From: a virus
Taxonomy: Duplodnaviria > Heunggongvirae > Uroviricota > Caudoviricetes
DNA: 36,723 nt
Direction: 5' to 3' (one strand)
IMG/VR virus record: IMGVR_UViG_2851976983_000007
Below, in pieces: positions 1-23,513 of this stretch (positions within the stretch are counted from its first letter, which is position 1; the number at the start of each line of letters is the position of its first letter). The notes beneath the pieces were generated by a model, which was not told where the DNA came from, made no database searches, and worked only from the letters and a program-made list of their open reading frames with translations. The translations under genes were made by a program, and so were the position numbers.

Positions 1-996
1 CTAACGAACCAGCCAGACCAGCATCAGGATAATCGCGACTAACAGTATCCACAGCGCGGGACGCGTTGCCATATTTTGCAACGTGTCCATCATCGGTGGA
101 AAAGGATTAAGCAGCGGTTGCATATCACGCGGATCAATCCCTTTAACCCGCCGTTGATAAAGCTGATTAAGAATATCCTCGGCCTGGGCAGAAGAAAGCG
201 ATGATTGCGCAGAAAGGCCATATTTTTGCTGGATATATGCCGATAACGCCGCCAGTTCACTGGCATCTAAAGGTTGTTTTAGCGCCATCTGTAGTGATTC
301 CAGCGTCGGCGTATTTTGCTGGCTTAACGTCTGGCGCGCCTGCAACCAGGTCACCAGATGGTTAAACAGTTTCGCTGGAATTAACTCGCCATCTTTCACC
401 CCGGAAAGTTCCAGCATCGATTGCCAGATCTGTTTGCTGGGTTCCCCCGTTGCCGCCGCAAGTTTGGTCACCAGCTGTTTTAGCGCATTGTGCTCCGCCG
501 GTAATAAAGGACGGTCGGTCGCCTCGCGCTGCTGTGGTTGCGGAATAACCATCTTCCCTTCCTGCAACAGGGTGAGAATGGTTTTTAATTGCTCCGGTGA
601 GAGCTGATTCAGCGGCGTCTGACCAAAGTTATGACGGATATAATCCGTGACCGCCTGACGATTATTCCCCAGACGTAAATACTCCCCTAATTGCGCTAAA
701 AGCTGGCGGGCAGAATGGCTTTTTTGCGCGGCCAGCAGACGTTGCGCCAGATTATGCTCAGCGGCAGGGAAGTGACGCGAAAGCAGCGGTGAATCTCCCG
801 ACAGACCAATATCGTGCCTGATACCCGCCCACAGTTCTGCTCTTTGTTGTTGCGTCAGTGAGGTCACTTTCGTCATTAAGCTTTCCAGCGAAGTACGTTG
901 CTGACTGGATAAAGGCTGATTGCCCGCGCCAGACGGCAGGTTATCTCCCTGACCTGGTGGTTGCCCAGGAGGAGGGCCGGAAATAGGTTGTATCAT
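1..996 (-). CDS. flk: Flk-like flagellar regulator, proline-rich N-terminus and C-terminal membrane anchor; host gene, complete
   Basis: 331-aa ORF MIQPISGPPPGQPPGQ... ending in hydrophobic tail WILLVAIILMLVWLVR; matches my memory of enterobacterial Flk; typical host GC. Confidence 0.7.
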   Translation of the reverse strand: MIQPISGPPPGQPPGQGDNLPSGAGNQPLSSQQRTSLESLMTKVTSLTQQQRAELWAGIRHDIGLSGDSPLLSRHFPAAEHNLAQRLLAAQKSHSARQLLAQLGEYLRLGNNRQAVTDYIRHNFGQTPLNQLSPEQLKTILTLLQEGKMVIPQPQQREATDRPLLPAEHNALKQLVTKLAAATGEPSKQIWQSMLELSGVKDGELIPAKLFNHLVTWLQARQTLSQQNTPTLESLQMALKQPLDASELAALSAYIQQKYGLSAQSSLSSAQAEDILNQLYQRRVKGIDPRDMQPLLNPFPPMMDTLQNMATRPALWILLVAIILMLVWLVR

Positions 997-1188
997 TACG
1001 TATCCTTATACCTGAAATCTTCGCAAGTATGCCTGGCCGCGAGATTATGGCACACTTGTCCGGTTAACTCTCGTCTCATACAGGTAACACAAACGTGAAA
1101 ATCCTTGTTGATGAAAAAAATGATGATTTAATTTATTGATATAAAAGGATTTATATCAGCACGTGTCCACGTAGTGACCACATTTTCG

Positions 1189-1228
1189 AGTTACAGATAA
1201 CACAAAGCCCGTTTTCACGGGCTTTGTG
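1189..1228. terminator. Perfect 17-bp inverted repeat (AGATAACACAAAGCCCG / CGGGCTTTGTGTTATCT) with 6-nt loop; likely terminator or insulator between low-GC module and flk
   Basis: Read directly from sequence around 1190-1230; no clear U-run, so intrinsic terminator function uncertain. Confidence 0.4.
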
Positions 1229-1262
1229 TTATCTGGATTGTGGCTAAGCCACATGATTTATG

Positions 1263-2155
1263 CTATTTCCAGTTACAAGCAGCTTGAAGTGGTTTTAGCG
1301 CGTTTGACAGGCCGTTTAAATTGAAAGTTGCACTTACAGGGCTCTCATTATAAGGAGTTATTTTTGTATACATTTTGTTTGAGTTGGCTAGTTTTCGGAT
1401 GAAATCAATGTCATTACCTTTATAAAAAACAGCCTTTGTATCTGTAGATACTAGCCAGTTTCGCTCAACTGCTTTCTGTTTATCAAGACGATAAAGCATG
1501 CTGGTTTGTTCAAGGCCTAAATATACATCCCAACTAAGAAATACTTCGGTTTTCTTTTCTCGGCAAGCTATAAACAGAGTGGGAGTAACCGCTTCTCCAA
1601 ATGGAGTTCTGATATAATCATCACTTTCTAACGATAAAATTACATTTTTCGAATCATCAATTGGCGATGTAGTAATGGATGTGTGCCATTTTCCTACATC
1701 TGTGGCTTTCTCTAATTTTGATTCAGCTTGAACAGCTTTATCCTGTGGGAATAGTTTATCGTAGCAGTTTAGTCTGGCTTCTTTATCATTTTCTGCTCGG
1801 CATTTAGATATCTCAGAAAGATTTGGTTGCTGAGCCTCTGTTGTTACTGGCTTTTCCGTTTTAGATTTTGAGTTTACAGATGGAGTAAATGTTGGAGAAA
1901 AAAACGATCATAACAAGATAAACGTCTGTCATCATCTTTCTCATCAGGGCATTGATCTCTGCTTTCGAATTTTTCAGCAACTTTCGTTCGAGTCGGTTGT
2001 ATTGACTTATCGTAACAAGAAAGTCTGTCTTTATTATTTTCTATTGCTCGGCACTGGAGTACTGCATTGAAGTTATTATGTTCAGTTGCTGCGTGAACAG
2101 GCAGTACACTAATTGATATAAATGATGCACCTATAGAAAAAATTATATTTTTCAT
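1263..2155 (-). pseudogene. Secreted Cys-repeat protein gene, reading frame broken at an A7 (minus-strand T7) homopolymer near 1898-1904; N-terminal part 1874-2155 carries a signal peptide, C-terminal part continues in another frame to 1263
   Basis: ORF 1874..2155 starts MKNIIFSIGASFISISVLPVHA; my manual translation shows the 1263..1499 frame is open upstream to a stop at about 1908 with no ATG; motif C-R-A-x-E-N-x-K-x-R-L-x-C-Y-D-K occurs three times across both frames; one extra T would fuse them. Confidence 0.5.
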
Positions 2156-2159
2156 TTTG

Positions 2160-2492
2160 TTATCCTTTTGGTTTAGTAAGAAATACTAAAATTCCGATAA
2201 TGATATCGCCAATAACCCATAAACTTCCAATGGTAATTAAACCTAAGCCTGTACCAATAACTGCACCGGCTTTTTCGGCATCGGATGTAGCATTATTTAT
2301 TATTTCACTAGTGCCTCCCAGTCCAACTAAAAGCGTATAGATCATAAAAATATTAAATAATATAAATATCCACTTAATGAGCTTTCCAAAAAATGAACGC
2401 TTAAGTTTTTTTATTTGTTTACCGCAAGCAGGGCAATACAATGCTGAATCGCTCACCTCTTTCTGGCATTCAGGACATTTGATTAATGCCAT
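2160..2492 (-). CDS. Zinc-ribbon (CPECx13CPACG) membrane protein, function unknown
   Basis: 110-aa ORF; N-terminal CxxC...CxxC followed by two hydrophobic helices; strong SD AAGGAGG about 9 nt upstream of ATG; low GC. Confidence 0.55.
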   Translation of the reverse strand: MALIKCPECQKEVSDSALYCPACGKQIKKLKRSFFGKLIKWIFILFNIFMIYTLLVGLGGTSEIINNATSDAEKAGAVIGTGLGLITIGSLWVIGDIIIGILVFLTKPKG

Positions 2493-2753
2493 GTAATCCG
2501 CCTCCTTTGGATCAATACGAGTTGATATTTGTTACAAAACATTTTGATTTTATCAGATTTTTTTTTATTGATAAGTGTCAATTGATTAGCTGGTATAGAG
2601 TGAGACATATAGAAGGGCAGATCTGTATCAGTAGTGATGCAAAAATCCCACAGTTTCATGGAATTTTTGCATTTAGAGCCGTGAGATAGGGTGCCTTATC
2701 GACCTTACCCTGGCAACCGATTGACGGGGGATTACTCCCCCGTCGCGGTTTCC

Positions 2754-2894
2754 TTACTGCTTACACTGTAAGAACGCCGCAAACTCCGCTCCCCAGAAAC
2801 TCATCCGTATTTCGCACAGCGAACCGTGCAACATCCAGATGATGAGGATTACCGTCACGCAGAACGTGATGGCTGTAAGCGATTTTTGCGACAT
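2754..2894 (-). CDS. Hok/Gef-family type I toxin-like small membrane peptide (46 aa)
   Basis: Manual translation MSQKSLTAITFCVTVILIIWMLHGSLCEIRMSFWGAEFAAFLQCKQ: TM helix then SLCEIR...AAFLxC pattern as in HokA/HokC; AGGAG upstream; GC-rich hairpin GACGGGGGA-GTAA-TCCCCCGTC just downstream (about 2717-2738); below the 60-aa cutoff of the ORF track. Confidence 0.6.
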   Translation of the reverse strand: MSQKSLTAITFCVTVILIIWMLHGSLCEIRMSFWGAEFAAFLQCKQ

Positions 2895-3084
2895 AGCACT
2901 TGCTCCTTTTCCGGAGAGGCGCTAACCTTTCACTTGCTTAGGGTAGACGGTTAGGGCCTCGGTTAAACAAAAGTGTTTTCCGGGGCCTTTCCACATCTGG
3001 CCTTCGGGTATTCCCTCCGACCATCAGCCGAAAGGCACCCGCGCGTAATCTATCGCTTTTTTGTTACTCCGGCAATTCTGCTTG

Positions 3085-3345
3085 TTAATTCTGAGGTAAA
3101 GGCAAACTCATCTGATTGTTTCCCCTGTGTGAAGCTGGTAGCTCATGCCACGGGATACCTTCTGAAGAGTGAACGCCGGAGGCGTGTTTCGATGTGAATT
3201 TATGGAAAGCTTCCAGTGTTGAGAAGCATACGCCGCATTCCAGATTGTTACACTGGTAATACTTTTGCCGCACGGTGTTTGAATCATTTTCCGGACGACT
3301 TGTGCGGATACGGGCAGATGCGCCACAAAGCGGACAACGGAACAT
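3085..3345 (-). CDS. ogr: Ogr-like zinc-finger late-gene transcription activator
   Basis: MFRCPLCGASARIRTSR...YYQCNNLECG resembles P2 Ogr MFHCPLC...HQCQNVNC; strong SD AGGGAGG; located beside D as in P2. Confidence 0.8.
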   Translation of the reverse strand: MFRCPLCGASARIRTSRPENDSNTVRQKYYQCNNLECGVCFSTLEAFHKFTSKHASGVHSSEGIPWHELPASHRGNNQMSLPLPQN

Positions 3346-3536
3346 AGCGACCTCCCTTAACGTGGTGTTGCCGCTATTCTAGATTGTACGATCCCTAATT
3401 CCAACTAACAGCTCGCTCTGTGCGAAGAGTGAAAATTGAACTTTCAATAGTTGTTGAACTTCCATACATCCAATGTGAAAATTCATACGTTCATAATAGT
3501 TAAAATTTAAAATATTGTATATCAGGTGAATAAAGC

Positions 3537-4559
3537 ATGGGAAGAGATATAACGCTGTACCCTAAAAAAGCAACTAGAAACGAACTTAAAAATTACCTTG
3601 AAAATTTAGGTTTTAAAAGGTGTAAACATTTGTGGGAATGGCCCCAAGGAACGTTGAATTACTCTTGGTTTGATGATACGGACTTCAAATCTACAGATGG
3701 AGTTTCGGCTGATATATATCCTGTTTCAAATGACGAATTACACATATCTGGTAATAAATGGGCATTGCATGTGCGTAATTTATATAGCGCTAGTTGGCAT
3801 GATGTAAAAATGCTTAATGATGTTCTAAAAGGCGCAAGGAGTCTTTTTGGTGGAACACTTATAGGTGATTATGGGAAAAATAGGTACGCTCCTCTATGGA
3901 AGGATTCTAGTAGTCCGATCAGTCGTGGCATTTCTTCAATATTTAATCATGTCCATCATGAGATTTCCGCTGTTAAACATGCCTTACCTGAACCTTCTAT
4001 TAAATTAAACCTACCGGAAGATGGCGGCTTATCCGAATACTTTGATTACATGCAATGTATGGATCCCAGTAGAGTTATATATAATGGATTAGTACCTTTT
4101 GCGGTTGCTATGTTTGAATACTTTTTCTCTAGAGCTTTTCAAATACTTATAAAGTACGATCCTTTCGCAATAGCAAAAAGAACATCGTATAAGCAAAAAG
4201 TTGATTTTGATATTCTGCTTGAGATAGAGAAAGGAAATATTTCAATAGAAAGTGTTATTGCAAGAAATTACACTTTTCAAAACTTAACCCACCTAAACAA
4301 AGCATATAAAGAGTGGCTGGATATAGATGTGAGAGCGATTCTTTATAAGAAAAAAAGAATTGGAAAATCAGTTGATTTTCTTGAGAATCGAATTTCTGAA
4401 ATCATACAATATAGACATGGGATAGTTCATCACTTTGAGTTGGATAGGACCTTAAATCGGGATGGATATATTCATATATTAGATGCGATAGAAAAAAGCA
4501 TAATTGAATTTATCCATTACATAGAAGGCAAATACAAATTTAAATTAAATGCGTATTAA
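3537..4559 (+). CDS. Low-GC cargo protein (340 aa), unknown function; C-terminal helical region with R-x4-H (QYRHGIVHH) suggests a HEPN-like domain; candidate abortive-infection/defence gene
   Basis: Strongly AT-rich ORF inserted between ogr and D on the opposite strand; own AT-rich upstream region with short direct repeats (GTGAAAATT x2, AATAGTT x2) and a downstream hairpin; no ATPase or nuclease motif I can recognise. Confidence 0.7.
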   Translation: MGRDITLYPKKATRNELKNYLENLGFKRCKHLWEWPQGTLNYSWFDDTDFKSTDGVSADIYPVSNDELHISGNKWALHVRNLYSASWHDVKMLNDVLKGARSLFGGTLIGDYGKNRYAPLWKDSSSPISRGISSIFNHVHHEISAVKHALPEPSIKLNLPEDGGLSEYFDYMQCMDPSRVIYNGLVPFAVAMFEYFFSRAFQILIKYDPFAIAKRTSYKQKVDFDILLEIEKGNISIESVIARNYTFQNLTHLNKAYKEWLDIDVRAILYKKKRIGKSVDFLENRISEIIQYRHGIVHHFELDRTLNRDGYIHILDAIEKSIIEFIHYIEGKYKFKLNAY

Positions 4560-4587
4560 GCAATCAACCTTACATAGGGATGACAAA

Positions 4588-4626
4588 GTCCGCTTCTGAC
4601 ACGGAGCGGACCGTCGTTTATGTTTA
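4588..4626 (+). terminator. Intrinsic terminator-like hairpin (GTCCGCT...AGCGGAC) followed by T-rich tract, downstream of the cargo gene
   Basis: Read from sequence; 7-bp stem, 10-nt loop, then CGTCGTTTATGTTT. Confidence 0.45.
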
Positions 4627-4679
4627 ATTCTATACTGTAAACTTGCCAGTTTAAGTTTGAGCTAATATGTCTAAGTTGC

Positions 4680-5789
4680 TCACTCTGTTTCTGCTATCCA
4701 TTCCGGGATTTTTGCCTCAAGCTCAAGCTGTGTGGTAAAGCCGCTGTTATCAATGGTGTGCTCGGCTTTCGCAATAATCCAGTCCTGATTATCAATCTCG
4801 CTTTTAAATCCTGTTACCGTGCCATGCATTTCGGGGTAGAGTTCTGCACGTCCACGCACCAGCGTGATGGAAAACGATGCGGCTCCGCGTTGTAGCTGCT
4901 GCCACTTTGCCGCCGCTGCGCGTCTTGCTGCCTGCTCGTTCTGATAAGTCTTGCGTAACACAAACACATTGCCTTCCGCGCCTTCCATATAATCACCTTC
5001 ACGGCTGCTGCTTTTCTCCTTTTTGGGTTTTGGCGGTTTGCGGCGTTTCACGCTGACTTTTTTCTTTTTCCCGTAATTAAGATCAAGCCAGTAAGCGCGT
5101 ACCCCCGTATACGCCTCGCGGTCAGCAATGCGGAACTGATGGCGATCGCCGCTGCTGCGTGTGATGGCGAACGATGGCAACGGCTGGCCCTGTGCGTTTA
5201 CGCCACCGCCGGGCATGATGAATAACAGATTACCGCTTTTTACCGTGGTGATTGCGCCCAGCATTTCCGCCATGCGCGTAAGGAAGGACATGTCGCTTTC
5301 TTCAGTCTGGTCGGCGTGGTCGATTTCGATATCCATCAGCATTTCGCTGATTTGCGGTTTCAGGCCGTACCGATGAGCGATGGCGGATACCACACGTTCA
5401 ACGGTCACATCATGCCAGGACGCCTCACGTTTAACATTAAATTCATCCCGAAAATCTGCGCTTCTGGCTGAAACAGTCAGCCTGTCCGGCGGTCCTTCGT
5501 GAGCGATTTCATCAACAATGTAAGTGCCTTTTTCTGTCAGCGGTTCCCCTTTCCAGCCAATGAGAACCGTCAGACGCGCGCCCCGTGGCGGTAGCTGCAA
5601 CTGGCCATCGGCATCATCCAGCGTGATGGTGAGCTGGTCCGCCTCAAATCCCCGGTTGTCGGTCAGTGACAGGCTCATCAGGCGTTCTGCCACGCCGGAC
5701 AGCGTTTTACCCTCGGCGAGAATATCAAAATCCGGCATTTTCACGGGGTCTGTGCCCTGACTGAGCAATTGCATGGTGGTGTCGGTCAT
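4680..5789 (-). CDS. D: Tail protein D (GPD family)
   Basis: Segments ITRSSGDRHQFRIADREAYTGVRAYW, SFSITLVRGRAELY and SGFTTQLELE parallel P2 gpD; start taken at MTDTTMQLL preceded by GGAGGGAG (track ORF runs on to 5921). Confidence 0.85.
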   Translation of the reverse strand: MTDTTMQLLSQGTDPVKMPDFDILAEGKTLSGVAERLMSLSLTDNRGFEADQLTITLDDADGQLQLPPRGARLTVLIGWKGEPLTEKGTYIVDEIAHEGPPDRLTVSARSADFRDEFNVKREASWHDVTVERVVSAIAHRYGLKPQISEMLMDIEIDHADQTEESDMSFLTRMAEMLGAITTVKSGNLLFIMPGGGVNAQGQPLPSFAITRSSGDRHQFRIADREAYTGVRAYWLDLNYGKKKKVSVKRRKPPKPKKEKSSSREGDYMEGAEGNVFVLRKTYQNEQAARRAAAAKWQQLQRGAASFSITLVRGRAELYPEMHGTVTGFKSEIDNQDWIIAKAEHTIDNSGFTTQLELEAKIPEWIAETE

Positions 5790-5946
5790 CTGCTCCCTCC
5801 CTGTGTGGCATGGTCGCATGTGCGTGCGGAGGGGGTTACTGCTTTTTGTTGTCGCCGTGGCGGGAGAATGGCGCAGGGGTGAGATTACGCGCGTGGTGGG
5901 TGATGATTGTTGCCGAATCATTTAACGGATACAAGGGGCTGAAGCT

Positions 5947-7131
5947 ATGAGTGAAACTCGTTTTCATGGTGCCCGTGTTACGGAAAATACCGACCTGGTA
6001 ACAGCGATTAACGATGTTGATTCCAGCGTTATCGGTATCGTGGCAACGGCGGATGATGCGGACGCGAAGCTGTTCCCGCTGAACAAGCCCACACTGCTGA
6101 CCCGCGTCAATGACGTGCTGGGAAAATGCGGGACAACGGGGACGCTTTATCGTGCGCTTAAGGCCATCGCAGACCAGGTGAGCACAAAGGTGATCGTCGT
6201 TCGCGTGGCTGAACACAAAGAAGAAGACGGAAAGACGCAGGATCAACTGGTTATCGGTGGTTCTGAGGATGACGGCAGCTATACGGGGATGTATGCGCTG
6301 CTTGTTGCAGAGCAGGATGAAAGCATCGGATACCGTCCGCGTATTCTGGCCGCGCCGGAGCTGGACACGGAGGCTGTAACAAAATCCCTGTGCGTGATTG
6401 CAGGTAAACTGCGCGCGTTTGTGTATGCCTCATGTCACGGCTGTAACACGATGGCTGAGGCGATTACCTACCGCCAGAAATTCAACGAACGTGAGGTGAT
6501 GCTCTTATGGCCGGACTTCATCGCCTACAACCCGAAAAGTGGCAAAAACGAAACGTTCCCCGCGCCTGCCTATGCGTGCGGCCTTCGTGCGTACATTGAC
6601 CATGAGCAGGGATGGCACAAATCACTGTCCAACGTTCCGGTTAAAAATGTGCTGGGGATGTCGAGGCATGTGTTCTGGTCGTTACAGGCCGAAGACAGTG
6701 ATGCCAACAGCCTCAACAACAAAGAAATCACGACCATTATTCGTCGCAACGGGTTCCGCTTCTGGGGCAACCGCACACCGGAAACGAACGCCTACATCTT
6801 TGAGGTGTATACCCGAACCGCACAGGTGCTGGCTGATTCAATTGCGGAAGCGCAGTTTGAAACCATCGACAGTCCACTGACGCCTGCGAACGTGAAGGAT
6901 GTTATCAGTGCCATCAGGGCAAAACTGGATTCACTGGTTACTGCCGGGAAACTGATTGGCGCGGAGTGCTGGTATGACGTGGTGGATAACAGCACCACGG
7001 ATTTACGTCAGGGGCGTGTGCGTATTCGCTACAAATATACGCCCGTTCCGCCACTGGAAGACATGGAGCTTTACCAGACGTTTACTGATGAATACTTTGA
7101 ACCCGCATTTGCGGTTCTGGGAGGTGCCTGA
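5947..7131 (+). CDS. FI: Contractile tail sheath protein FI
   Basis: 394 aa, position and size match P2 FI; followed directly by tube gene. Confidence 0.9.
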   Translation: MSETRFHGARVTENTDLVTAINDVDSSVIGIVATADDADAKLFPLNKPTLLTRVNDVLGKCGTTGTLYRALKAIADQVSTKVIVVRVAEHKEEDGKTQDQLVIGGSEDDGSYTGMYALLVAEQDESIGYRPRILAAPELDTEAVTKSLCVIAGKLRAFVYASCHGCNTMAEAITYRQKFNEREVMLLWPDFIAYNPKSGKNETFPAPAYACGLRAYIDHEQGWHKSLSNVPVKNVLGMSRHVFWSLQAEDSDANSLNNKEITTIIRRNGFRFWGNRTPETNAYIFEVYTRTAQVLADSIAEAQFETIDSPLTPANVKDVISAIRAKLDSLVTAGKLIGAECWYDVVDNSTTDLRQGRVRIRYKYTPVPPLEDMELYQTFTDEYFEPAFAVLGGA

Positions 7132-7643
7132 TGGCTGTGCCAAAACATCTTCGCTTTTTTACGCTGTTTGTGGATGGTGAAAACGAAGTGGGTAAGGTGA
7201 CGTCCGTCACTCTGCCCAAACTGACGCGCAAAACCGACAGCTACCGGGGTGGTGGCATGATGGGGGCGGTAAGTATTGATCTCGGTCTGGACGACTCTGC
7301 GCTTGATGCGAGCTTTGTCATGGGGGGCGCAGTTCGTGCGCTGTTCCTTAAGTATGGCGGCACGATTGACGGCACGCTGCTGCGTTTTGCGGGTGAATAC
7401 TACACCGATGCAGAAAGCGACCTGTATGAAGTCGAAATGCGCGGACGTGTGACGGAAATTGATATGGGGGAAGCCAAACAGGGCGAAGCCACATCACACA
7501 CTTACGCCATTAAAAACACCTACTACAAGCTGAGTGTTAACGATCGCCCGTTGTGGGAGATTGACCTGCTGAACTTCATTTACCGGAAGGACGGCAAGGA
7601 CATTGTGTCCGATCGCATCCGTTCCGCGCTTGGGCTTGGCTGA
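7131..7643 (+). CDS. FII: Tail tube protein FII
   Basis: 170 aa, ATGA overlap with FI stop; P2 FII-like size and position. Confidence 0.9.
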   Translation: MAVPKHLRFFTLFVDGENEVGKVTSVTLPKLTRKTDSYRGGGMMGAVSIDLGLDDSALDASFVMGGAVRALFLKYGGTIDGTLLRFAGEYYTDAESDLYEVEMRGRVTEIDMGEAKQGEATSHTYAIKNTYYKLSVNDRPLWEIDLLNFIYRKDGKDIVSDRIRSALGLG

Positions 7644-7697
7644 TAAGTAATATGCAGGCGGCGCAGTGCGTCGCCTCTGACTGAAAGGAGTTTCCTG

Positions 7698-8063
7698 ATG
7701 AAAGAGACGAAAAACATCGATACCGAAAACACGGTAGTTACTGACACTGTGAAAGAAACCAGTGAGCGTGGCGTAAAACTTACCCAACCAATTGAGCGAG
7801 GCGGCGAAAAAATCACGTATGTGGAGATCACCGGGGCTATTGAGCAGGCTGGATCTCTGCGAGATTTGTCGCTGTCTGATGTGCTGAATCTGAAAGCGGA
7901 ATCCATGTTTACGCTGCTGTCACGCGTGACATCACCGCGACTGGATGAAGTGACGATCAAAAAAATGGCATCCCGTGACTTTATTCAGTTATGTGTGGTT
8001 GCCGTAAATTTTTTGAGCGGTGCGGACTCTGGCGGGAAGAACGAACAGGCGACGGAAGCCTGA
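7698..8063 (+). CDS. E: Tail assembly chaperone E
   Basis: 121 aa upstream of the tape-measure gene; contains slippery heptamer. Confidence 0.85.
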   Translation: MKETKNIDTENTVVTDTVKETSERGVKLTQPIERGGEKITYVEITGAIEQAGSLRDLSLSDVLNLKAESMFTLLSRVTSPRLDEVTIKKMASRDFIQLCVVAVNFLSGADSGGKNEQATEA

Positions 8064-8227
8064 TCACGGTTGTGTGCTTTGAGCACATAGAAGACTTTGT
8101 GGCAGATATTGCCGTTATTTTTAACTGGTCGCCCGCCGAAATCTTCATGATGACGCCCGGCGAAGTGGTTAGCTGGCGTGAGCGGGCGGCACTTCGCAGC
8201 GGGAATGCAGACAATGAAGACTCTTGA
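7698..8227 (+). CDS. E+E' frameshift product: frame 0 to about 8015, then -1 frame to 8227
   Basis: TTTTTTG slippery heptamer at about 8009-8015 in frame T-TTT-TTG; the -1 frame ORF (track 7991..8227) runs on to overlap the T start; conserved chaperone frameshift in P2-like and other tailed phages. Confidence 0.7.
8009..8015 (+). promoter_or_regulatory. Programmed -1 ribosomal frameshift slippery site TTTTTTG
   Basis: Seen in sequence; position relative to E and the -1 ORF. Confidence 0.65.
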
Positions 8228-11021
8228 TATCCGGGTCGCTTTCAGCGCCGTTGACAGGCTGACCCGGCCTGCCGAAAACGCCCGCCGCCTGATGGGGCAG
8301 TTTGGTGACTCCATCCAGCGAACGCAGGGGGCGATCAAAAATCTCGAGCGTCAGGCGCGATCATTTGAGCGCGCCCGCGACGCTGTCAGTAAAGCGGATG
8401 CTGGCATATTGAAAGCACGACGCCAGCTTAACGCCCTTAATCAGTTACAACGCACGGGTACAGTGCTCAGCGAAAAACAACAAAAGCTGATGCAGCAGTT
8501 AAGCACCCGGCTTGAACACCTGAATGAATCGCGCACACGTGAAATTCAGAAAATGCGGGAGCTTGGCGGAGAGCTGAAACGCCACGGCATTTCCCTGACA
8601 GGCAGCGATAACACCATCCAGCAGGCCATCAGACGCACCGAACAGTACAACAACCAGCTTGAACGCGAACGGCAGGCGCTTGCGCGTGTAACGCGGGCGC
8701 GTGAGCGGTATTCGCGCGCGCAGGAAACTGCGGGAAAACTGAAAACAGGTGGTGCGCTGGCAATTGGTGCGGCAGCGGCTGGCGGCTATGCTGCCGGGCG
8801 TTTTTTGCAGCCTGCGATCGGGTTCGGGAAAGAGATGTCCCGCGTTCAGGCACTGACGCGAATCGACAAAAACAGCCCGCAGTTTAAGGCGCTGCGTGAG
8901 CAGGCGTTAAAACTTGGCTCTGAAACACAGTTTACTGCGAGTGATGCCGCCAGTGGGCAGAGCTTTCTGGCAATGGCTGGTTTTACTCCGCAGGCCATTC
9001 AGGCCGCATTGCCCGGTGTTCTTAATATGGCGCTGGCAGGTGGCGTCGAACTCGGCGAGACGGCTGATATAGGCTCCAATATCCTCACACAATTCAACCT
9101 GACAGCCGATCAAATGGACCGTGTTGGCGATACGCTGACAGCAGCATTCACCCGGACCAATACTGATTTACGCGCGCTGGGCGAAACCATGAAGTATACC
9201 GGTCCGGTTGCCGCAAAACTTGGTATCAGTCTTGAAGAAGCGGCAGCCATGGCCGGGATGCTTGCCAATAATGGTCTTCGTGGAAGCGATGCTGGTACAG
9301 CCATGCGCGCAAGTCTGTCCCGCCTTGCATCACCGCCAAAAGCTGCGGCTGATGCGCTGAAAGAGCTGGGGGTGTCAGTTGCTGACGCCAGAGGCAAAAT
9401 GCGCCCGATGGAGGATGTGCTGCTTGATCTCTATAAGGCGACACAAAAATACGGACAGGTGGACCAGGTCTCCTTCTTCAAGGACATCGCCGGAGAAGAG
9501 GCGTTCGTTGGTTTGCAGACGCTTGTTGCGGCGGCTGGTTCAGGAGAGCTGCAAAAACTGACCAGAGAATTGCAGGGGGCAAGGGGAGAGGCCGATCGCG
9601 TTGCAAAAGTAATGGCCGATAATCTTGATGGGGACCTGAAAAATCTCGACAGCGCATGGGAAGGTCTTCGTATTCGCATCAGTGATCTGGTTGACGGTCC
9701 GCTGCGTTCTGTCACGCAGTGGCTCACGCGGGTGCTTGAAAAAATCACCTCGCTGGCGCAGGCCCATCCGGTACTGACGCGCCAGCTACTGATAGCAGGC
9801 GGTGCGTTGCTGGCAATGACTGCAACGGTTGGCTCGTTGTCGCTGGCTATTGGTGTGCTTGCTGGCCCGCTGGCAAAACTGCGTCTTGGCTTTTCCCTCC
9901 TGACCGGTTCAATGAATGCTGTCAGACTCCTGCCAGCACTATGGGGAATGGTGACGGGTTCCGTTTCGTTACTGGGGGGCGCTATCGGGGCGTTGTTCAG
10001 TCCGGTCGGTCTTATCGTGGCTGCGCTTGCCGGAGCTGCCGTTCTCATCTGGAAATACTGGGATCCCATCAGGGCATTTTTTGCCGGGGTGTTCAGCGGG
10101 ATTATGGAAAGGCTGACCCCGTTGCGCGAAACCTTTGAACGGTTTGGTCCTGTTTTTGACGCAATCGGAAGCGGGATCAGCCAGGTGTTTAACTGGTTTA
10201 AATCGCTGTTGTCACCGATGGAGTCCAGCAAGGAAACGCTGGATAAATGTACCAGTGCTGGCGAGATATTCGGTAACGTTCTTGGCGGTGCGTTACAACT
10301 TGTTTTGACACCTGCAAAAATGCTACTGGATACGCTGGCGTGGATACTTGAAAAACTTGGCGTCCTTCCGGATGAAGCGGAAAGGGCGCGCAAGAAAATC
10401 GAAGACGCACAGCGTGAGGCCATTCTTCAGGACAAGGTTGCCTTGCTTCAGGGGGACCTGGCGAAAATCAATCCGCCGAAGCCTGTGGAAAATGGCAATG
10501 GCACCGGAGGTGATAACCCCAAAGACAATAAACCGCTCACAGACAGCAATACCGGTACGCTGCGCAGACTCAGCAAAATTGCTGATAACACAGGTAAGCT
10601 GGTTGAGGAGACGAAAAAACGCATTGGCCCCGGCGATATTGTCTTTAAGAACCTGCCCCGAGCACTTGCTGTTCGTGGGGAGTGGCAGGAGCGGAAGATT
10701 GCGCAGGTCAGTAAGCCTGCCCCCGCAATTAATATCACACCCGTGGTCTCGGCTCCGCTGCCTCCGGCGCTGGTCCCTGTTGTTGCGGCCAGCTCCCGCC
10801 CGGTGGCGGAGGCTATACGATCTCCAGTGGCATCAGTTCCTGTAACTTCCCGTAACCGGGAGCCTGTTGCCTCCGGATTTGGTGGTGAAATTCATGTTCA
10901 TCTGCATAACGTTGTTACGCAGAATCCCCGCGAACTGGCGAAACTGGTCGGTGAAATGGTCAGGGCAGAAATGGAACGGCGCGCCCGTGCCGGGCGTGGC
11001 AGTTTTTACGATAAAGATTGA
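8205..11021 (+). CDS. T: Tail tape measure protein T
   Basis: About 940 aa, helical N-terminus and hydrophobic middle typical of tape-measure proteins; start uncertain (GTG 8178, ATG 8205 or 8214). Confidence 0.85.
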   Translation: MQTMKTLDIRVAFSAVDRLTRPAENARRLMGQFGDSIQRTQGAIKNLERQARSFERARDAVSKADAGILKARRQLNALNQLQRTGTVLSEKQQKLMQQLSTRLEHLNESRTREIQKMRELGGELKRHGISLTGSDNTIQQAIRRTEQYNNQLERERQALARVTRARERYSRAQETAGKLKTGGALAIGAAAAGGYAAGRFLQPAIGFGKEMSRVQALTRIDKNSPQFKALREQALKLGSETQFTASDAASGQSFLAMAGFTPQAIQAALPGVLNMALAGGVELGETADIGSNILTQFNLTADQMDRVGDTLTAAFTRTNTDLRALGETMKYTGPVAAKLGISLEEAAAMAGMLANNGLRGSDAGTAMRASLSRLASPPKAAADALKELGVSVADARGKMRPMEDVLLDLYKATQKYGQVDQVSFFKDIAGEEAFVGLQTLVAAAGSGELQKLTRELQGARGEADRVAKVMADNLDGDLKNLDSAWEGLRIRISDLVDGPLRSVTQWLTRVLEKITSLAQAHPVLTRQLLIAGGALLAMTATVGSLSLAIGVLAGPLAKLRLGFSLLTGSMNAVRLLPALWGMVTGSVSLLGGAIGALFSPVGLIVAALAGAAVLIWKYWDPIRAFFAGVFSGIMERLTPLRETFERFGPVFDAIGSGISQVFNWFKSLLSPMESSKETLDKCTSAGEIFGNVLGGALQLVLTPAKMLLDTLAWILEKLGVLPDEAERARKKIEDAQREAILQDKVALLQGDLAKINPPKPVENGNGTGGDNPKDNKPLTDSNTGTLRRLSKIADNTGKLVEETKKRIGPGDIVFKNLPRALAVRGEWQERKIAQVSKPAPAINITPVVSAPLPPALVPVVAASSRPVAEAIRSPVASVPVTSRNREPVASGFGGEIHVHLHNVVTQNPRELAKLVGEMVRAEMERRARAGRGSFYDKD

Positions 11022-11027
11022 GGAGTC

Positions 11028-11522
11028 ATGGCCATGATGATGATCTACGGCATGTTTGTTTTTGAGCTGCGCACGCTGCCGCATCAGCAGTTACAGCAAA
11101 ACAAAAGCTGGCGGCATGTGAAAAATGAACGCGTTAACCGTTCAGCAAGCTGGCAGTATATCGGTGCAGGTGATGATCGCATCGTTCTTTCTGGTGTGCT
11201 TTATCCTGAAATTACAGGTGGCGAAGTGTCGCTGTCGCTGCTGACCACGCAGGCGTATACAGGACGACCCTGGCCTTTGATTGATGGCGTCGGGCAGATT
11301 TACGGCATGTATGTCCTGACCGGAACGAATACGACCCGTTCCGAGTTTGATCGCTACGGTAAGGCGAAAAAGATAGAATTTTCACTGACCCTTGAACGCT
11401 GTGATGAGGATTTGCGGGAGCGCCTGCAATCCTCATCGTTCAGCGATATGCTGTCCGGCTTCAAAGATAAAGTGACATCATCTCTTAACAGCGCGGTCAG
11501 TTCAGTTAAAGGGCTGTTCTGA
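11028..11522 (+). CDS. U: Tail protein U
   Basis: 164 aa, GMFVFELRTLPHQ... resembles P2 gpU N-terminus; follows T. Confidence 0.85.
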   Translation: MAMMMIYGMFVFELRTLPHQQLQQNKSWRHVKNERVNRSASWQYIGAGDDRIVLSGVLYPEITGGEVSLSLLTTQAYTGRPWPLIDGVGQIYGMYVLTGTNTTRSEFDRYGKAKKIEFSLTLERCDEDLRERLQSSSFSDMLSGFKDKVTSSLNSAVSSVKGLF

Positions 11523-11533
11523 TTTAACACAAA

Positions 11534-11570
11534 AACCGCTAATGACCAGATTAGCGGTTATTTTGTTTCC
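11534..11570. terminator. Hairpin AACCGCTAAT-(6)-ATTAGCGGTT followed by ATTTTGTTT; terminator after U, overlapping the 3' end of the invertase ORF
   Basis: Seen in sequence. Confidence 0.5.
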
Positions 11571-12145
11571 TGACTCTTCTCAATTGTTCCGCTTGATTCT
11601 CCTGCGGGGTGGTAACGATAAATCGTCGATATACCAATGCCGTAAATTATTGCCAGTTGTTTTCTGTCGTGCCCGTTTTTGATCAGCCTTGCTATTTGCT
11701 CATGCTGTTCTTTTGTCAGCTTCGGGCGACGTCCGCCTGTGCGCCCTCGTGCGCGCGCTGCAGCCAGTCCGGCCAGTGTACGTTCAACAATTAATTCACG
11801 TTCCATTTCAGCCAGGGCACCCATCACGTGGAAGAAAAAACGCCCCATTGGAGAAGATGTATCTATGCTGTCGGTCAGACTGCGAAAATTAATCCCTCGC
11901 TCCCGTAGTTCCCCGACGAGAGAAATCAGATGTTTCATGCTTCGCCCGAGGCGATCCAGTTTCCAGACAACCAGCGTGTCGCCTTTTTGAAGGCGCTTTA
12001 AAGCGCGTTTTAATCCCGGTCGGTCTGTCTTTGTCCCGCTTAATTTATCTTCAAATATTTGTTCGCATCCTGCACAAACAAGAGCGTTTCGTTGCAGGTC
12101 TGTATTCTGGTCATTTGTTGATACGCGAACATAGCCAATAAGCAT
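11558..12145 (-). CDS. Serine DNA invertase, Hin/Gin/Pin/Cin family
   Basis: MLIGYVRVSTNDQNTDLQRNAL...TLVVWKLDRLGRS...SPMGRFFFHVMGALAEMERELI...GRRPKLT: near-canonical Hin-family sequence with catalytic Ser in RVST; start at second ATG, which has GGGGG spacing. Confidence 0.9.
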   Translation of the reverse strand: MLIGYVRVSTNDQNTDLQRNALVCAGCEQIFEDKLSGTKTDRPGLKRALKRLQKGDTLVVWKLDRLGRSMKHLISLVGELRERGINFRSLTDSIDTSSPMGRFFFHVMGALAEMERELIVERTLAGLAAARARGRTGGRRPKLTKEQHEQIARLIKNGHDRKQLAIIYGIGISTIYRYHPAGESSGTIEKSQETK

Positions 12146-12200
12146 GATCATCCCCCTGAATAAAAACCGGGGATGATGCCAGTTAGCTGTTACCTCTGCA

Positions 12201-12226
12201 TTTTCTTAAACGTTGGTTTGGAGAAG
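12201..12226. other. Candidate invertase crossover site, left (26 bp, 12-2-12: TTTTCTTAAACG TT GGTTTGGAGAAG)
   Basis: hix/gix-like half-sites TTnTCnnAAAC; about 50 bp from the invertase start; inverted relative to the right site. Confidence 0.55.
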
Positions 12227-12925
12227 GGCCGATGGGTTGTTGGCCCGGGCAATGCAATACTGTATGGACAGCTGGTCCGGTATGGTGTTTTGGTTCAACG
12301 GGCGAAATTTTCTGCCTCTGATTACCCTGTGCTGGCGAAGTGTTCCTTCGCTGTATTACCTGAAGCCCGGTGATTTCATTCGTATCTGATGACGGCGAGG
12401 TCAGACGGGTCGAATATTGCTGGCAGGCAGCTACAAACTTTTCTCAGTTTCCGGAATATAGGCGAGGTGCGGGACACGCAATTAACTTCATGATGCATCG
12501 CCGAAATCAGCCAGGATTTCAGATTTAATTTCACAGTAATCTGTGGTGATGTGTGAATTTTTTGCTGTCAGCCGCGAAAATTGCATTTATTTCTGGTGAG
12601 GCTAATAATGAACCTGTTTGATGAAATGGGCTGGCTACAGTGCCGGCGATATGCGTGTTTTATTATGATGCTGAACATCTGAGTATACGGGCTGTCTGAT
12701 GAATATAATACTGCGTAAGTATGCCCGCCTGTTCATGGTATTGCCCTGGCGAACATTGGAAGAGGCAGTATTTACAGGTAAGGATGGACCATGAAAAGAC
12801 CATCGCAATGAGACTGTTATCAATCGAAATGGTCGCTGTAAGTGGATTATATCGGTGCCATCAAAACGTTATGTCAGCTTTACCGTTACGCCATTGATAA
12901 TGGATGGTGAGAATGGGTGACAGAT
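12227..12925. repeat. Left arm of long inverted duplication (about 85-90 percent identical to 13220-13968, inverted), carrying an alternative tail-fibre C-terminal segment and a frameshifted tfa copy
   Basis: Manual alignment of + strand here against the reverse complement of the right arm; many substitutions and 1-nt indels. Confidence 0.7.
12608..12925 (+). pseudogene. tfa' remnant (tail fibre assembly chaperone pseudogene), multiple frameshifts relative to the intact tfa
   Basis: Begins ATGAACCTGTTTGATGAAATGGGCTGG, homologous to tfa ATGAAACCTGTTTTTGATGAAAATGGGCTGG, but stops after about 25 codons. Confidence 0.6.
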
Positions 12926-13157
12926 ACTAAGGCCACACGGTGCCGCAGTAGAGCGCAGAAGCACAGCGCCAGTCACTGATTGATGCTGCAATGGCTTCCA
13001 TCAGCCTGATTCAGCTGAATTACAGGCCGGGCGGAAGCTGACGCAGGCAGAACCACCCGGCTTAACGCCGTGCTGATTCATGCCGGTCGACATCAGCCCG
13101 GCCGATGTCATGCCTGAATGCGGAGCAGCCATTCAATATCTGGCGCTGGTTCGCCGT

Positions 13158-13535
13158 TCAGTGCGCCAGTTGTGCCTTATATTGCACCATTCTCACCATC
13201 CATTTATCATATGGCGTTAACGGTGAAAGCGTGACATAACCGTTTTTGATGGCACCGATATAATCCACTGTAACAGCAGCACCATTTTCGATTGAGTAAA
13301 CAGTCTCATTGCGATGGTCTTCTTCATGGCTCCATCCCTTACCTGTAAATACTGCCACTCTTCCCGGGATGTTTTCGCCAGGGTCAATACCAGTGGAACA
13401 GGCGGGCATACTTACGCCAGTATTAATATATTCATCAGACCAGCCCGTATACTCAGATGTTTCAGCATCATAATAAAAACAACGCATATCGCCCGGCACT
13501 GTAGCCAGCCCATTTTCATCAAAAACAGGTTTCAT
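13158..13535 (-). CDS. G: Tail fibre assembly chaperone (Tfa, N-terminal Tfa domain only)
   Basis: 125 aa; ...PACSTGIDPGENIPGRVAVFTGKGWSHEEDHRNETVY... parallels lambda Tfa ...[39 protein letters not shown]... Confidence 0.85.
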   Translation of the reverse strand: MKPVFDENGLATVPGDMRCFYYDAETSEYTGWSDEYINTGVSMPACSTGIDPGENIPGRVAVFTGKGWSHEEDHRNETVYSIENGAAVTVDYIGAIKNGYVTLSPLTPYDKWMVRMVQYKAQLAH

Positions 13536-13968
13536 TATTTAGCCCTCACCAGAAAGTTAAATGCAATATTTCGCGGTCTGACAGCAACAAAATTCACACC
13601 ATCACCCACAGAGTTACTGGTGAAATTAAATCGTGAAAATCCTGGCTGATTTCCGGCGATGCCATCATGAAAGTTAATTGCGTGTCCCGCACCTTCGCCT
13701 ATATTCCGGCAACTGAGAAAGTTTGTAGCTGCCTGCCAGCTTAATAATCGCGACCACCGTCTGCACCTCGCCGTCATCCAGATACGAATGAAATCACGCG
13801 GGCTTCAGGTAATACCAGCGAAGGAAACACTTTCGCCAGCACAGGTAATCAGAGCAGAAAATTTCGCCCCGTTGAACTTCAAAACACCATACCGGACCAG
13901 CTGTCGATTACAGTATTTGGCATTGCCGCGGAGGCCCAGAAGAACGGAACGCCAATAGCTGGAGCACC
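13220..13968. repeat. Right arm of the inverted duplication (H C-terminal region plus 5' two-thirds of tfa)
   Basis: See left arm; pairing derived by manual alignment. Confidence 0.7.
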
Positions 13969-15030
13969 TTCTCCCAAACCAAGGTATGCGAGAAGACCAG
14001 CAACATCCTTTCCACTCAAATTAGTCAGCGTATTGTCCAGCGGTTGTTTGTCTGCCAGTGCATTAAGCACTGTTGTTGAAAAGTTAGGGTCATTCCCCAG
14101 CGCCGCCGCCAGTTCATTCAGTGTATCCAGTGCCGCAGGGGCAGAACCCACCATTGCCGCAATTGCTGATTTCACAAAAGCTGTGGTGGCAATCTGTGTA
14201 TTGTTGACCGACTGTGCCGCAGTAGGTGCTGTTGGCGTTCCGGTAAGTGCCGGACTCGATAGCGGCGCTTTCAGTGCCAGCGCATTGTTAATGGTGGTGC
14301 TGAATTTCGGGTCATTGTTAATGGCTGCGGCAATTTCTTTCAGTGTGTCCAGCGTGGCTGGCGCACCGTTAATCAGATCGGTAATAGCGGCCTGAACAAA
14401 CTCAGTGGTCGCAATCCGCGTGGTGTTATTTCCTGCGGCAGGCGTCGGCGCTTTTGGTTCTCCGGTAAATGTCGGATTATGTTTCTGCGCATACTGGGTA
14501 TGAGGATCCTGTGCGGCAATGTGGTTTCTCATCTGGTCATCCACATACAGCTTTAATTCCAGGACTTTATCATCCACGTATTTACGGGTCGCCAGTACCA
14601 CCGACGGGTCGATTTTCAGCGTGATGGCTTCGGTGTTCGTGACAACCAGAATCATGCGGATAGTCTGGGTGCGTCCACTGCCTTCCTGCAACTGCGGTTT
14701 GTACGTTTCCGGGCAGTTTGCCACCGCAATGAGTACACCTTCATCATCATAAAGACCAATCTCACGGATCCAGAATCCTCCCTCGTTTTCAGGGATGATT
14801 TGCTCAGCAATAATCTGGCTCTGATTGTTAGGGTCAACACTCAGAAGATTCAGCGGTGCAATGCGTTTCTGGTTAATCAGTTTTGTTTGTGCAGGGTCTG
14901 GTGTTGGTAACACACCATTTGCATCACCAACGGCCATTTGCGTCAGATTCAGCTTACTGCCGAGCATCGTCGCGTTAGCCAGTCGTGCCGCGCCCTGATT
15001 AGTCAGAATGGCGTAGTATTTCACTGTCAT
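13879..15030 (-). CDS. H: Tail fibre protein H: P2 H-like constant N-terminal region, then only 34 aa after the crossover site
   Basis: N-terminus ...MAVGDANG...EGGFWIREIGLYDDEGVLIAVAN...YKPQLQEGSGRTQTIRMI... parallels P2 gpH; 383 aa versus about 670 in P2, so the distal region is short or decayed. Confidence 0.85.
   Translation of the reverse strand: MTVKYYAILTNQGAARLANATMLGSKLNLTQMAVGDANGVLPTPDPAQTKLINQKRIAPLNLLSVDPNNQSQIIAEQIIPENEGGFWIREIGLYDDEGVLIAVANCPETYKPQLQEGSGRTQTIRMILVVTNTEAITLKIDPSVVLATRKYVDDKVLELKLYVDDQMRNHIAAQDPHTQYAQKHNPTFTGEPKAPTPAAGNNTTRIATTEFVQAAITDLINGAPATLDTLKEIAAAINNDPKFSTTINNALALKAPLSSPALTGTPTAPTAAQSVNNTQIATTAFVKSAIAAMVGSAPAALDTLNELAAALGNDPNFSTTVLNALADKQPLDNTLTNLSGKDVAGLLAYLGLGEGAPAIGVPFFWASAAMPNTVIDSWSGMVF
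13969..13994. other. Candidate invertase crossover site, right (TTCTCCCAAACC AA GGTATGCGAGAA), inside the H coding sequence
   Basis: Left half closely matches my recollection of the hixL left half (TTCTTGAAAACC); in frame it encodes AYLGLGEG of H; inverted relative to the left site. Confidence 0.6.
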
Positions 15031-15635
15031 GCGTTTACTCTCAGATTATCAATTAAATGAATGGCCGGGGCAGGGAAATAATCCCCTTCGACAATAATGG
15101 ACTCCGGGGTGTAGGGATAAACCGTCAGGGCATCGCCGTGATAGCATCCCGTACCAACGAAAATCTTTCCGTTCACACTCAGGCTGATCGCCAGCCCCGT
15201 CAGATGGCGACTTACTGGTTTTGCATCCGCAATAAGGCGCTCAAGTTCCTGATACATTTCATCGGTGATGCCCTGATCAAGTACTCCGACAACAATGCGA
15301 AATGTTCCTGGCTCCTCGTTGAGTTGCCACCACTCCTTTACTTCAATCAGGTAGCCGAGAGGCTCCACGGCTCTTCGCAGTGCGCTGATGGTCCCTTTGT
15401 GTCGGTGTATCAGCCATGCATCACGAATCACCTGTCGCTTTGTCTCTTCCGGCCAGTTGCGATCCCAGCGGTCAACGGAAAACGCCCAGGCGAGATAAGG
15501 CAGCAAATGCACCGGGCAGGTGTCCGGTGACCACAGCGTGTTGAGGTCTACCGGGATGTCTGTAATGCGCGCTCCGACTGCTTCGGCGCAACGCATGAAA
15601 CGGCTGGCTGATGGCGGTAACAGTGAATTACTCAT
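15027..15635 (-). CDS. I: Baseplate protein I
   Basis: Start at MSNSLLPP with AGGTGG SD; overlaps J stop; track ORF extends to 15668. Confidence 0.8.
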   Translation of the reverse strand: MSNSLLPPSASRFMRCAEAVGARITDIPVDLNTLWSPDTCPVHLLPYLAWAFSVDRWDRNWPEETKRQVIRDAWLIHRHKGTISALRRAVEPLGYLIEVKEWWQLNEEPGTFRIVVGVLDQGITDEMYQELERLIADAKPVSRHLTGLAISLSVNGKIFVGTGCYHGDALTVYPYTPESIIVEGDYFPAPAIHLIDNLRVNA

Positions 15636-18548: not shown

Positions 18549-18825
18549 GGTTGTTGTCCTCGTTGTTCAGTCGTTGCAGCCTGCGCTGTTCCAGTAATTC
18601 AATGGCCCGTTTATCCGCGTTACAGGTTTCCAGTGCATCCAGAAGGCGGTCGCCCCATATACCGAGATTTCCCCATGTGGGAGTGTCAGGGAAGGGGGGA
18701 GGCGTTACCGGTATGGTCAGCGTCTGCGGTATAAGCCGGACTGACGGCGCTGGCCGTGGCGCGTTCTGCGTGCCTGCGCAGCCTGTCAGTAAAACGAGCG
18801 TCAGGCAAAGCGTGGGCGCATTCAT
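18535..18825 (-). CDS. lysC: Outer-membrane spanin lipoprotein (LysC/Rz1-like), embedded in another frame of lysB
   Basis: MNAPTLCLTLVLLTGCAG lipobox followed by proline-rich segment; start taken at the second Met. Confidence 0.6.
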   Translation of the reverse strand: MNAPTLCLTLVLLTGCAGTQNAPRPAPSVRLIPQTLTIPVTPPPFPDTPTWGNLGIWGDRLLDALETCNADKRAIELLEQRRLQRLNNEDNNHAEN

Positions 18826-23359: not shown

Positions 23360-23513
23360 AGTTTTTGCCCCTCTGACTGGTTCTTCAGTCATGATGGCAA
23401 AGCGTAACAGGTTGATACAAAGGGCTTTTGTTGTAAGAAAACGGCCAGAACAGGGGGTTAAGGAGAACAGTTTCGCGCGCGGGTAATCTTCCTGTAATTA
23501 CTCAGGGGGAGCA

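Follow-up and report, generated by a model that had tools for sequence, protein, structure and literature searches.

Opposite orientation of the FI–U tail block and gene D in a P2-like prophage: a clade-wide gene order and a candidate shared late operator

Why do the tail-shaft genes of a P2-like prophage read away from the gene that closes their operon in phage P2? The question is raised by the IMG/VR record IMGVR_UViG_2851976983_000007, a stretch of 36,723 nucleotides which we analyzed at its full length (the window). By Pfam and open reading frame (ORF) analysis it is a near-whole P2-like prophage, flanked by the host gene flk (1–996) and a phage integrase end. In P2 the products FI, FII, E, E′, T, U and D come from one F operon under the promoter pF, with D downstream of U and the block co-directional with H and G. 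In the window FI to U lie on the plus strand, beginning at 5947 and convergent with H and G, while gene D (4680–5780) lies on the minus strand and is divergent from FI. An earlier interpretation based on the letters alone (the sequence-only reading) had suspected a rearrangement here. We found that the FI–U inversion relative to P2 is real, but that it is fixed, clade-wide and functional, and is not a local rearrangement.

Occurrence of the arrangement in phages and bacterial genomes

Window positions 4600–12300, running from D through an invertase gene that follows U, were matched in one piece by megablast in phage 500465-2 (100% identity), in P88 (95.1%), and in P884B11 and PhiSM (93.4% each), as well as in 1103 complete Escherichia coli genomes. 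The values for 500465-2 and P88, obtained over 97–99% of this interval, place the window among the P88-like Peduoviridae (Xuanwuvirus/Gemsvirus). From 4600 to 12229 the window is 100% identical to both E. coli B7A and phage 500465-2. Sequences from many laboratories, 13 phage records and more than 1100 complete genomes in all, contain the block junctions as one uninterrupted match. With a 1.2-kb probe spanning the D/FI junction, 1385 complete E. coli genomes gave some match, which was collinear in 1354; the layout is present in about 1350 of the 5426 complete E. coli genomes, or about a quarter. P88 (Xuanwuvirus P88) and 500465-2 (Gemsvirus gv5004652) have the same order and strands as the window, from ogr through D, FI–U and the invertase gene to the tail fibres, although the tail-fibre invertible segment differs. 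The same strand pattern is seen in the annotated records of P88, SEN5 and KSP20, the last of which is a partial record.

Several of these relatives are characterized phages. P88 can be induced and forms plaques, and its lysogen has served for genetic engineering of the phage (PMC5285337). The Citrobacter phage PhiSM is released spontaneously, forms plaques and lysogenises K-12 (PMC6456863), and the Salmonella phage SEN5 was sequenced as produced phage (PMC5261728). The sequence-only reading had named functional relatives with exactly this arrangement as the finding that would speak against a rearrangement; P88, PhiSM and SEN5 are such relatives, and its suspicion is not supported. The inversion is mentioned in none of the papers searched, those on P88, SEN4/5, PhiSM and Serratia PP4, though it is plainly visible in the deposited records, and the arrangement is already known from public records of characterized phages.

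Could this one genome nevertheless have suffered a recent local inversion or an assembly error, leaving D promoterless and the prophage tail-defective? The order does differ from that of P2, no exact TGT-N12-ACA site stands in the D/FI spacer, and the neighbouring invertible segment looks poorly assembled. But an accident of one genome would not recur with the same junctions in so many phage records and complete genomes, nor with full identity to B7A and 500465-2 over 4600–12229, and phages with FI–U in this order form plaques. We regard the chance of such an accident as practically negligible.

If the arrangement is a lineage feature, then we can ask: How far does the lineage extend? To the phage records and the window we added 160 sheath-relative loci from GTDB genomes and IMG/VR, taking the best 80 per collection rather than an exhaustive survey, and classified the 165 loci by tblastn with window and P2 proteins. 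D was divergent from and adjacent to FI in 125/125 loci with FI at least 55% identical to that of the window, and the canonical co-directional FI..U–D order was found in 40/40 loci with FI at most 52% identical. Arrangement thus tracks the sheath phylogeny perfectly in the sampled loci, and the inverted type is present with or without an invertase gene. Its hosts include Salmonella, Citrobacter, Enterobacter, Klebsiella, Kosakonia, Serratia and Brenneria, and further Pectobacterium, Pantoea, Erwinia, Providencia, Morganella and Xenorhabdus. Among its members are the P88-like Xuanwuvirus/Gemsvirus phages, Senquatrovirus SEN4/5, a Klebsiella phage placed in Reipivirus, Serratia KSP20 and many Enterobacterales prophages.

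The polarity of the change was read from outgroups. In phiCTX and Mannheimia phiMhaA1 the genes FI, U and D are co-directional with V-W-J-I-H, although T is relocated in phiMhaA1. When the Mannheimia phage was used as root in a neighbour-joining tree of FI, all 111 unique sequences of the inverted type fell into a single clade. A midpoint-rooted FI tree had its root inside the inverted group, which made this group paraphyletic, and polarity therefore depends on the outgroup; that tree was set aside as a rooting artefact and the analysis repeated with an outgroup. A single old inversion appears to be the simplest reading of these data. Gene order and sheath phylogeny together suggest that, very probably, the FI–U block stands in the fixed, ancestral orientation of a deep Peduoviridae clade after one old inversion that included pF, for which we propose a shared dyad operator. 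A single turn of the tail-shaft block together with pF would have cut the P2 F operon in two: FI–U, which now converges on the V-W-J-I-H-G operon, and D, which keeps its direction towards ogr.

None of the tail genes is missing or broken: Pfam identifies D, FI, FII, T and U, BLASTP against each P2 protein finds counterparts of all six with E included, and the E/E′ frameshift site is preserved. The sequence-only reading had the identities and strands of these genes right. On the plus strand follow the tail sheath FI (5947–7131, 394 aa; Pfam Phage_sheath_1, Gp18_domIII_N and Phage_sheath_1C), the tail tube FII (7131–7643, 170 aa; Phage_tube, E=6e-47), E (7698–8063; annotated as GpE family in CP025892), the tape measure protein T (8214–11021, 935 aa; PhageMin_Tail) and the tail protein U (11028–11522, 164 aa; Phage_P2_GpU, E=1.5e-38). 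The product E+E′ (7698–8227) would arise by a −1 frameshift at the slippery site TTTTTTG at 8009–8015; in translation the −1 frame of E is open to the stop at 8227 and overlaps the T start at 8214, a start which agrees with the 2808-nt annotation in P88 and 500465-2. The internal order FI-FII-E/E′-T-U, the TTTTTTG site, an Ogr homologue and an activator-type site about 83–88 bp upstream of FI are common to P2 and the window. Relative to the annotated P2 record only FI–U is flipped; D, ogr and the other late genes are not. The minus strand carries the tail genes H, I, J, W, V, S and R together with the head genes L, M, N and O; P and Q, as in P2, read from the plus strand. With J, I and H on the minus strand, FI–U is not co-directional with V-W-J-I-H-G, and the 3′ side of U is occupied not by D on the same strand but by a terminator and a convergent invertase gene.

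P2-like genomes are mosaic, and the FI–U proteins are only 32–46% identical to those of P2 (32–49% with D counted in). A tail-shaft module of a different phage type might have been inserted backwards, with no inversion in place. Such a replacement would be expected to leave the block as an outlier, but identity to P2 was 46% for FI, 42% for FII, 46% for U, 49% for D, 54% for J, 42% for N, 44% for P and 47% for Q, with E (32%) and T lower. As identity is uniform over head, baseplate, D and FI–U (42–54%), the block is no foreign insert. Moreover, the candidate pF operator and −10 stand at the canonical distance from the start of FI, inverted-type sheaths make up a single clade in the FI tree, and across loci the identity of D rises and falls with that of FI. 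Horizontal replacement is accordingly improbable in our view, and an inversion in place is preferred.

Ends of the block and the adjacent invertase

The block ends against the 3′ end of a Gin/Hin-type serine DNA invertase gene (11558–12151, minus strand; Pfam Resolvase and HTH_7), which has about 93% nucleotide identity to Mu/D108 gin over part of its length. U and this gene are convergent and 35 bp apart, as the sequence-only reading had it. Between them, at 11534–11559, lies a hairpin with a perfect 10-bp stem, a 6-nt loop and T-runs on both strands, which a terminator scan scored as an intrinsic terminator in both directions. It would end both the FI–U and the invertase transcripts and so prevent antisense read-through into the tail block. 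A terminator-like hairpin 3′ of U was found on at least one strand in 23 of 35 relatives, a loose indication from a crude scan in which several of the hairpins were weak.

A weak inverted motif had been reported as shared by the two junctions of the block. The motifs, at 5918 and 11536, are not significant as an inverted repeat: exact inverted matching between the junctions extends to 7 nt at most, a length that 115 of 500 shuffles also attained, and the best 11-mer window has 8/11 matches, which 468 of 500 shuffles reached. The right motif, CCGCTAATGA, is one arm of the terminator stem (AACCGCTAAT/ATTAGCGGTT). The shared motif is chance plus a terminator arm. A repeat finder likewise gave no significant inverted repeats at the block ends; its only long-range pair (5648–5678 with 12144–12174), 71% complementary, looks like noise and was rejected.

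Sites of the kind that Gin-type enzymes use lie elsewhere. The window has two 26-bp gix/cix-like crossover sites, the only two with high scores, and they flank alternative tail-fibre ends. One (12201–12226, 16/24) marks the invertase-proximal end of the tail-fibre invertible segment, outside the FI–U block. The other lies inside H (13969–13994; TTCTCCCAAACC AA GGTATGCGAGAA) and is the best-scoring site in the window, although its 22/24 is largely circular, the scanning half-site TTCTCCCAAACC being its own left half, and only the 10/12 of the right half is independent. A serine invertase with two such sites around alternative tail-fibre ends (12201–13994) resembles the Gin/Hin/Cin/Pin segments, such as Mu G and P1 C. 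This segment adjoins the FI–U block without including it, whereas the block has no such sites and one orientation only.

Might FI–U then be a second invertible segment, flipped by the adjacent enzyme at secondary sites, so that its orientation is switchable? The invertase gene abuts U, the opposite orientations of the tail-fibre segment in the window and in CP025892 make the enzyme appear active there, and a reversible inversion has been reported in a P88-type prophage (bioRxiv 10.1101/2022.05.07.487787). But the best gix-like matches at the block junctions (5781–5946 and 11523–11557) reach 12/24, which is background, against 16/24 for the independently scored invertase-proximal site, and the shared junction motif is chance. 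The opposite FI–U orientation was found in 0 of the 125 clade loci, the E. coli genomes counted above being collinear across the junction in all but 31 of 1385, and most clade members, SEN5 included, hold the same orientation with no invertase gene at all. A switchable block is thus very improbable, and the adjacent invertase plays no role in the orientation of FI–U.

The D/FI spacer and a candidate late operator

How can D be expressed late if it was parted from pF by the inversion? The answer may lie in the spacer between D and FI, whose length depends on the start of D. The protein is a tail/baseplate hub (366 aa; Pfam Phage_GPD) with 49% identity to P2 gpD in BLASTP. The longest D ORF reaches 5921, but a start at 5780 is better supported, because a Shine–Dalgarno sequence (GGGAGGGAG) stands just upstream of this ATG, P88 annotates the same start (366 aa), and the N-terminus aligns with that of P2 gpD, residue 16 pairing with P2 residue 15. 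The divergent spacer therefore spans 166 bp (5781–5946), which agrees with the sequence-only reading. We propose it as a bidirectional late promoter region, with pD leftward and pF rightward.

Late promoters of the Ogr/Delta/B type lack a −35 element; their TGT-N12-ACA dyad has its centre about 55 bp ahead of the start, and they need both the activator and a contact with the RNA polymerase alpha subunit. The likely activator of the window is encoded by an ogr-type gene (3085–3345, minus strand; 86 aa, C4 zinc finger; Pfam Ogr_Delta, E=5e-14), whose product is 41.5% identical to P2 Ogr over 53 aa in BLASTP and whose counterpart in CP025892 is annotated as an ogr/Delta-like zinc finger protein. 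That no TGT-N12-ACA site stands in the D/FI spacer, as had been stated earlier, is true of the exact pattern; a 5/6 site, TGT-N12-AGA, is nevertheless present at 5850–5867 (TGTCGCCGTGGCGGGAGA, centre 5858.5), at a position conserved across the clade. In the whole window the exact pattern occurs 6 times against 8.65 expected by chance, and at none of the late promoters, the P/O region included; the exact pattern therefore cannot decide. The annotated pF and pP/pO sites of P2 itself are also 5/6 (TGT-N12-CCA), and the homologous position is an exact TGT-N12-ACA in KSP20 (TGTCGCCGGCGGATGACA), SEN5 and many others.

Among 110 unique upstream regions of the clade, 106 have a site with at most one mismatch centred 78.5–91.5 nt from the FI ATG, while shuffled regions give 7.3 such sites on average and 14 at most. 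Exact sites account for 48 of those in the clade and TGT-N12-AGA for 56, and 67 different spacers occur among them. The distance from the operator centre to the FI ATG is 88.5 nt in the window, 82.5 nt in P2 and 78–84 nt in other canonical loci. The O/P spacer of the window has a TGT-N12-AGA site in the same extended context (TTTTGTTGT...AGAA) at 23432–23449.

The candidate operator is equidistant from two −10-like hexamers. On the plus strand, a predicted pF −10 hexamer, GATGAT, lies at 5902–5907 (+44 to +49 from the operator centre); on the minus strand, a predicted extended −10 for pD, TGcGACCAT, lies at 5818–5810, with its TG at +41/+42 and its hexamer again at +44 to +49. Counted from the operator centre in the 110 unique relatives, the FI side keeps A45 in 90%, A48 in 94% and T49 in 92%, and the D side keeps T41 in 73%, G42 in 89%, A45 in 96%, A48 in 79% and T49 in 90%, that is, an extended −10 at the mirror position. 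In the canonical P2-like loci (17 sequences) the FI side conserves the same positions, whereas the far side, where there is no D gene, has no such conservation. A sigma-70 scan of 4500–12500 gave no −35/−10 pair in the D/FI spacer, as expected for activator-dependent promoters. Transcription would be predicted to start near 5914 for pF (plus strand) and near 5803 for pD (minus strand), by comparison with P2, whose starts lie 55.5–58.5 nt from the operator centre.

This geometry mirrors a promoter pair known from P2. The P2 record annotates one activator site (3057–3087) for the divergent promoters pP (start 3016) and pO (start 3127), and inside it we identified a 5/6 dyad at 3063–3080 whose centre is 55.5 nt from each annotated start. 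At P2 pP/pO and in the D/FI spacer of the window alike, about 150–170 bp lie between two divergent late units and a single dyad site stands halfway. The P2 site has its centre equally far from two mapped starts and serves P and O, while the site in the window would serve D and FI, with the starts and the Ogr dependence predicted. One shared site has also been described for PP′/PO′ of Smp131 (PMC3931495).

In the window, one Ogr-type dyad (5850–5867) would thus lie about 55 bp upstream of both the pF and the pD start. Because of its dyad symmetry, the inverted pF could have given D late Ogr-dependent expression once a −10 arose at the mirror position. Our proposal, which we hold to be rather probable from the conserved geometry, is that this single operator drives pF rightward and a clade-specific pD leftward, and that the inversion was tolerated and then fixed because the symmetric site had reached the 5′ end of D. 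The inversion was likely tolerated because an activator dyad of the P2 type can serve promoters on both sides, as at pP/pO. The shared operator for pF and a clade-specific pD is the one mildly new idea here.

What speaks against this interpretation? The operator of the window is only a 5/6 match, and a match of this quality would by itself turn up about once in 20 times within the expected 10–20 bp. As a −10, the D-side hexamer GACCAT is poor, and a strongly conserved GCGCGCG by the D-side −10 may serve some other function. The starts near 5914 and 5803, like the Ogr dependence, are predictions. Conservation partly reflects shared ancestry, a concern which the variable spacers and the canonical control lessen but do not remove, and the control set of 17 sequences is small and not very diverse. 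Finally, the perfect split between the arrangements was seen in a sample, the best 80 loci of each collection.

Some of these points would suit another view, in which the lineage feature holds but D has its own constitutive or differently regulated promoter, served by GCGCGCG and TG-N-nAnnAT unless these have yet another function. The extended −10 on the D side (TG in 73% and 89% of relatives) is able to work without an activator, the GCGCGCG element is unexplained, and the FI-side half-site of the operator reads AGA in the window, not ACA. But the hexamers on the two sides are exactly equidistant from the operator centre across 110 diverse sequences, in a geometry that mirrors P2 pP/pO; the D protein of P2 is structural and late; and no −35/−10 pair turned up in the spacer in the sigma-70 scan. 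A separate D promoter seems to us unlikely, though less so than the other alternatives, and we continue to prefer the shared operator.

If the shared operator is true, the inversion would have rewired late regulation, parting D, and with it the downstream ogr in P88-like genomes, from the sheath–tube–tape-measure transcript. A clade-defining inversion split a textbook late operon, apparently at no cost. In genome scanning, a departure from the P2 reference order is no evidence of rearrangement, and annotation or prophage-integrity tools that expect FI..U–D on one strand could wrongly flag such prophages as scrambled.

Further features of the spacers were noted. In an alignment of the D/FI spacer from 38 diverse relatives, a GC-alternating element between the operator and the D-side −10 (consensus GCGCGCG, in the window GTGCGTG) is found in at least 80%. 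The window stretches in question are 5816–5832 and 5885–5900; the FI side carries a CGCGCG run of this kind, as does the O/P spacer (about 23464–23472). The O/P spacer has a single TGT-N12-AGA site, that at 23432–23449, with a good −10, TAATCT (23484–23489), on the P side. Were this site shared in the manner of P2, the O-side start would be predicted at about 23385, inside the longest O ORF, which favours the shorter O start of the P88 annotation (about 23359). A one-mismatch site upstream of the R start (18552–18569) was rejected as a promoter element, as it lies 4–21 nt from the ATG and overlaps the Shine–Dalgarno sequence. In three Providencia prophages (L031, L032 and L033) no TGT-N12-ACA-like site stands in the D/FI spacer, and a symmetric GTTCTC-N10-GAGAAC (TCT-N12-AGA) is found at the same position; the joint change of both half-sites hints at an Ogr homologue with altered specificity.

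Neighbouring regions and related records

Beyond the invertase gene, identity to B7A and 500465-2, 100% up to 12229, collapses exactly at the gix-like site. The H-proximal arm (13125–13985) matches CP025892 in the reversed orientation with 95.7% identity and 27 gap positions, and the invertase-proximal arm (12150–13146) matches it with only 85.6% and 136 gaps and has no ORF above 66 aa. H (13879–15030) encodes 383 aa in the window against 501 aa in 500465-2, and no complete E. coli genome covers at least 80% of 12150–15100. These features suggest that 12201–13994 is an actively flipping segment which either carries consensus errors from reads of mixed orientation or has a decayed arm.

On the other side of the block, D had been described as lying next to ogr. 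This is the arrangement of P88, where ogr is directly downstream of D; in the window an ORF of 340 aa (3537–4559, plus strand), with 34% GC and absent from P88, separates the two genes. It is convergent with D, and a hairpin is found at 4588–4611. In several IMG/VR relatives ogr is also far from D, and the ogr–D interval looks like a variable cargo spot. The only family match of the 340-aa ORF is a sub-threshold one to Pfam HEPN RiboL-PSP (E=1.2e-4), and the cargo ORFs gave 0 PADLOC matches.

A second cargo gene (1262–2155, minus strand) corresponds to a 297-aa "type VI secretion system-associated protein TagO" in CP025892 and 500465-2. A single 1-nt indel interrupts this TagO-like gene in the window. 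Over 1–4700 no other difference from the two records occurs, and the break may reflect either a real pseudogene or a sequencing error.

The RefSeq record of 500465-2 (NC_049343; L001 among our loci) runs into the host genes flk, yfcJ, fabB and mnmC. It breaks each of the portal, terminase and scaffold genes into two or three coding sequences, whereas P (583 aa) and Q (348 aa) are unbroken in the window. This record looks like a prophage prediction with frameshift errors and not a packaged genome.

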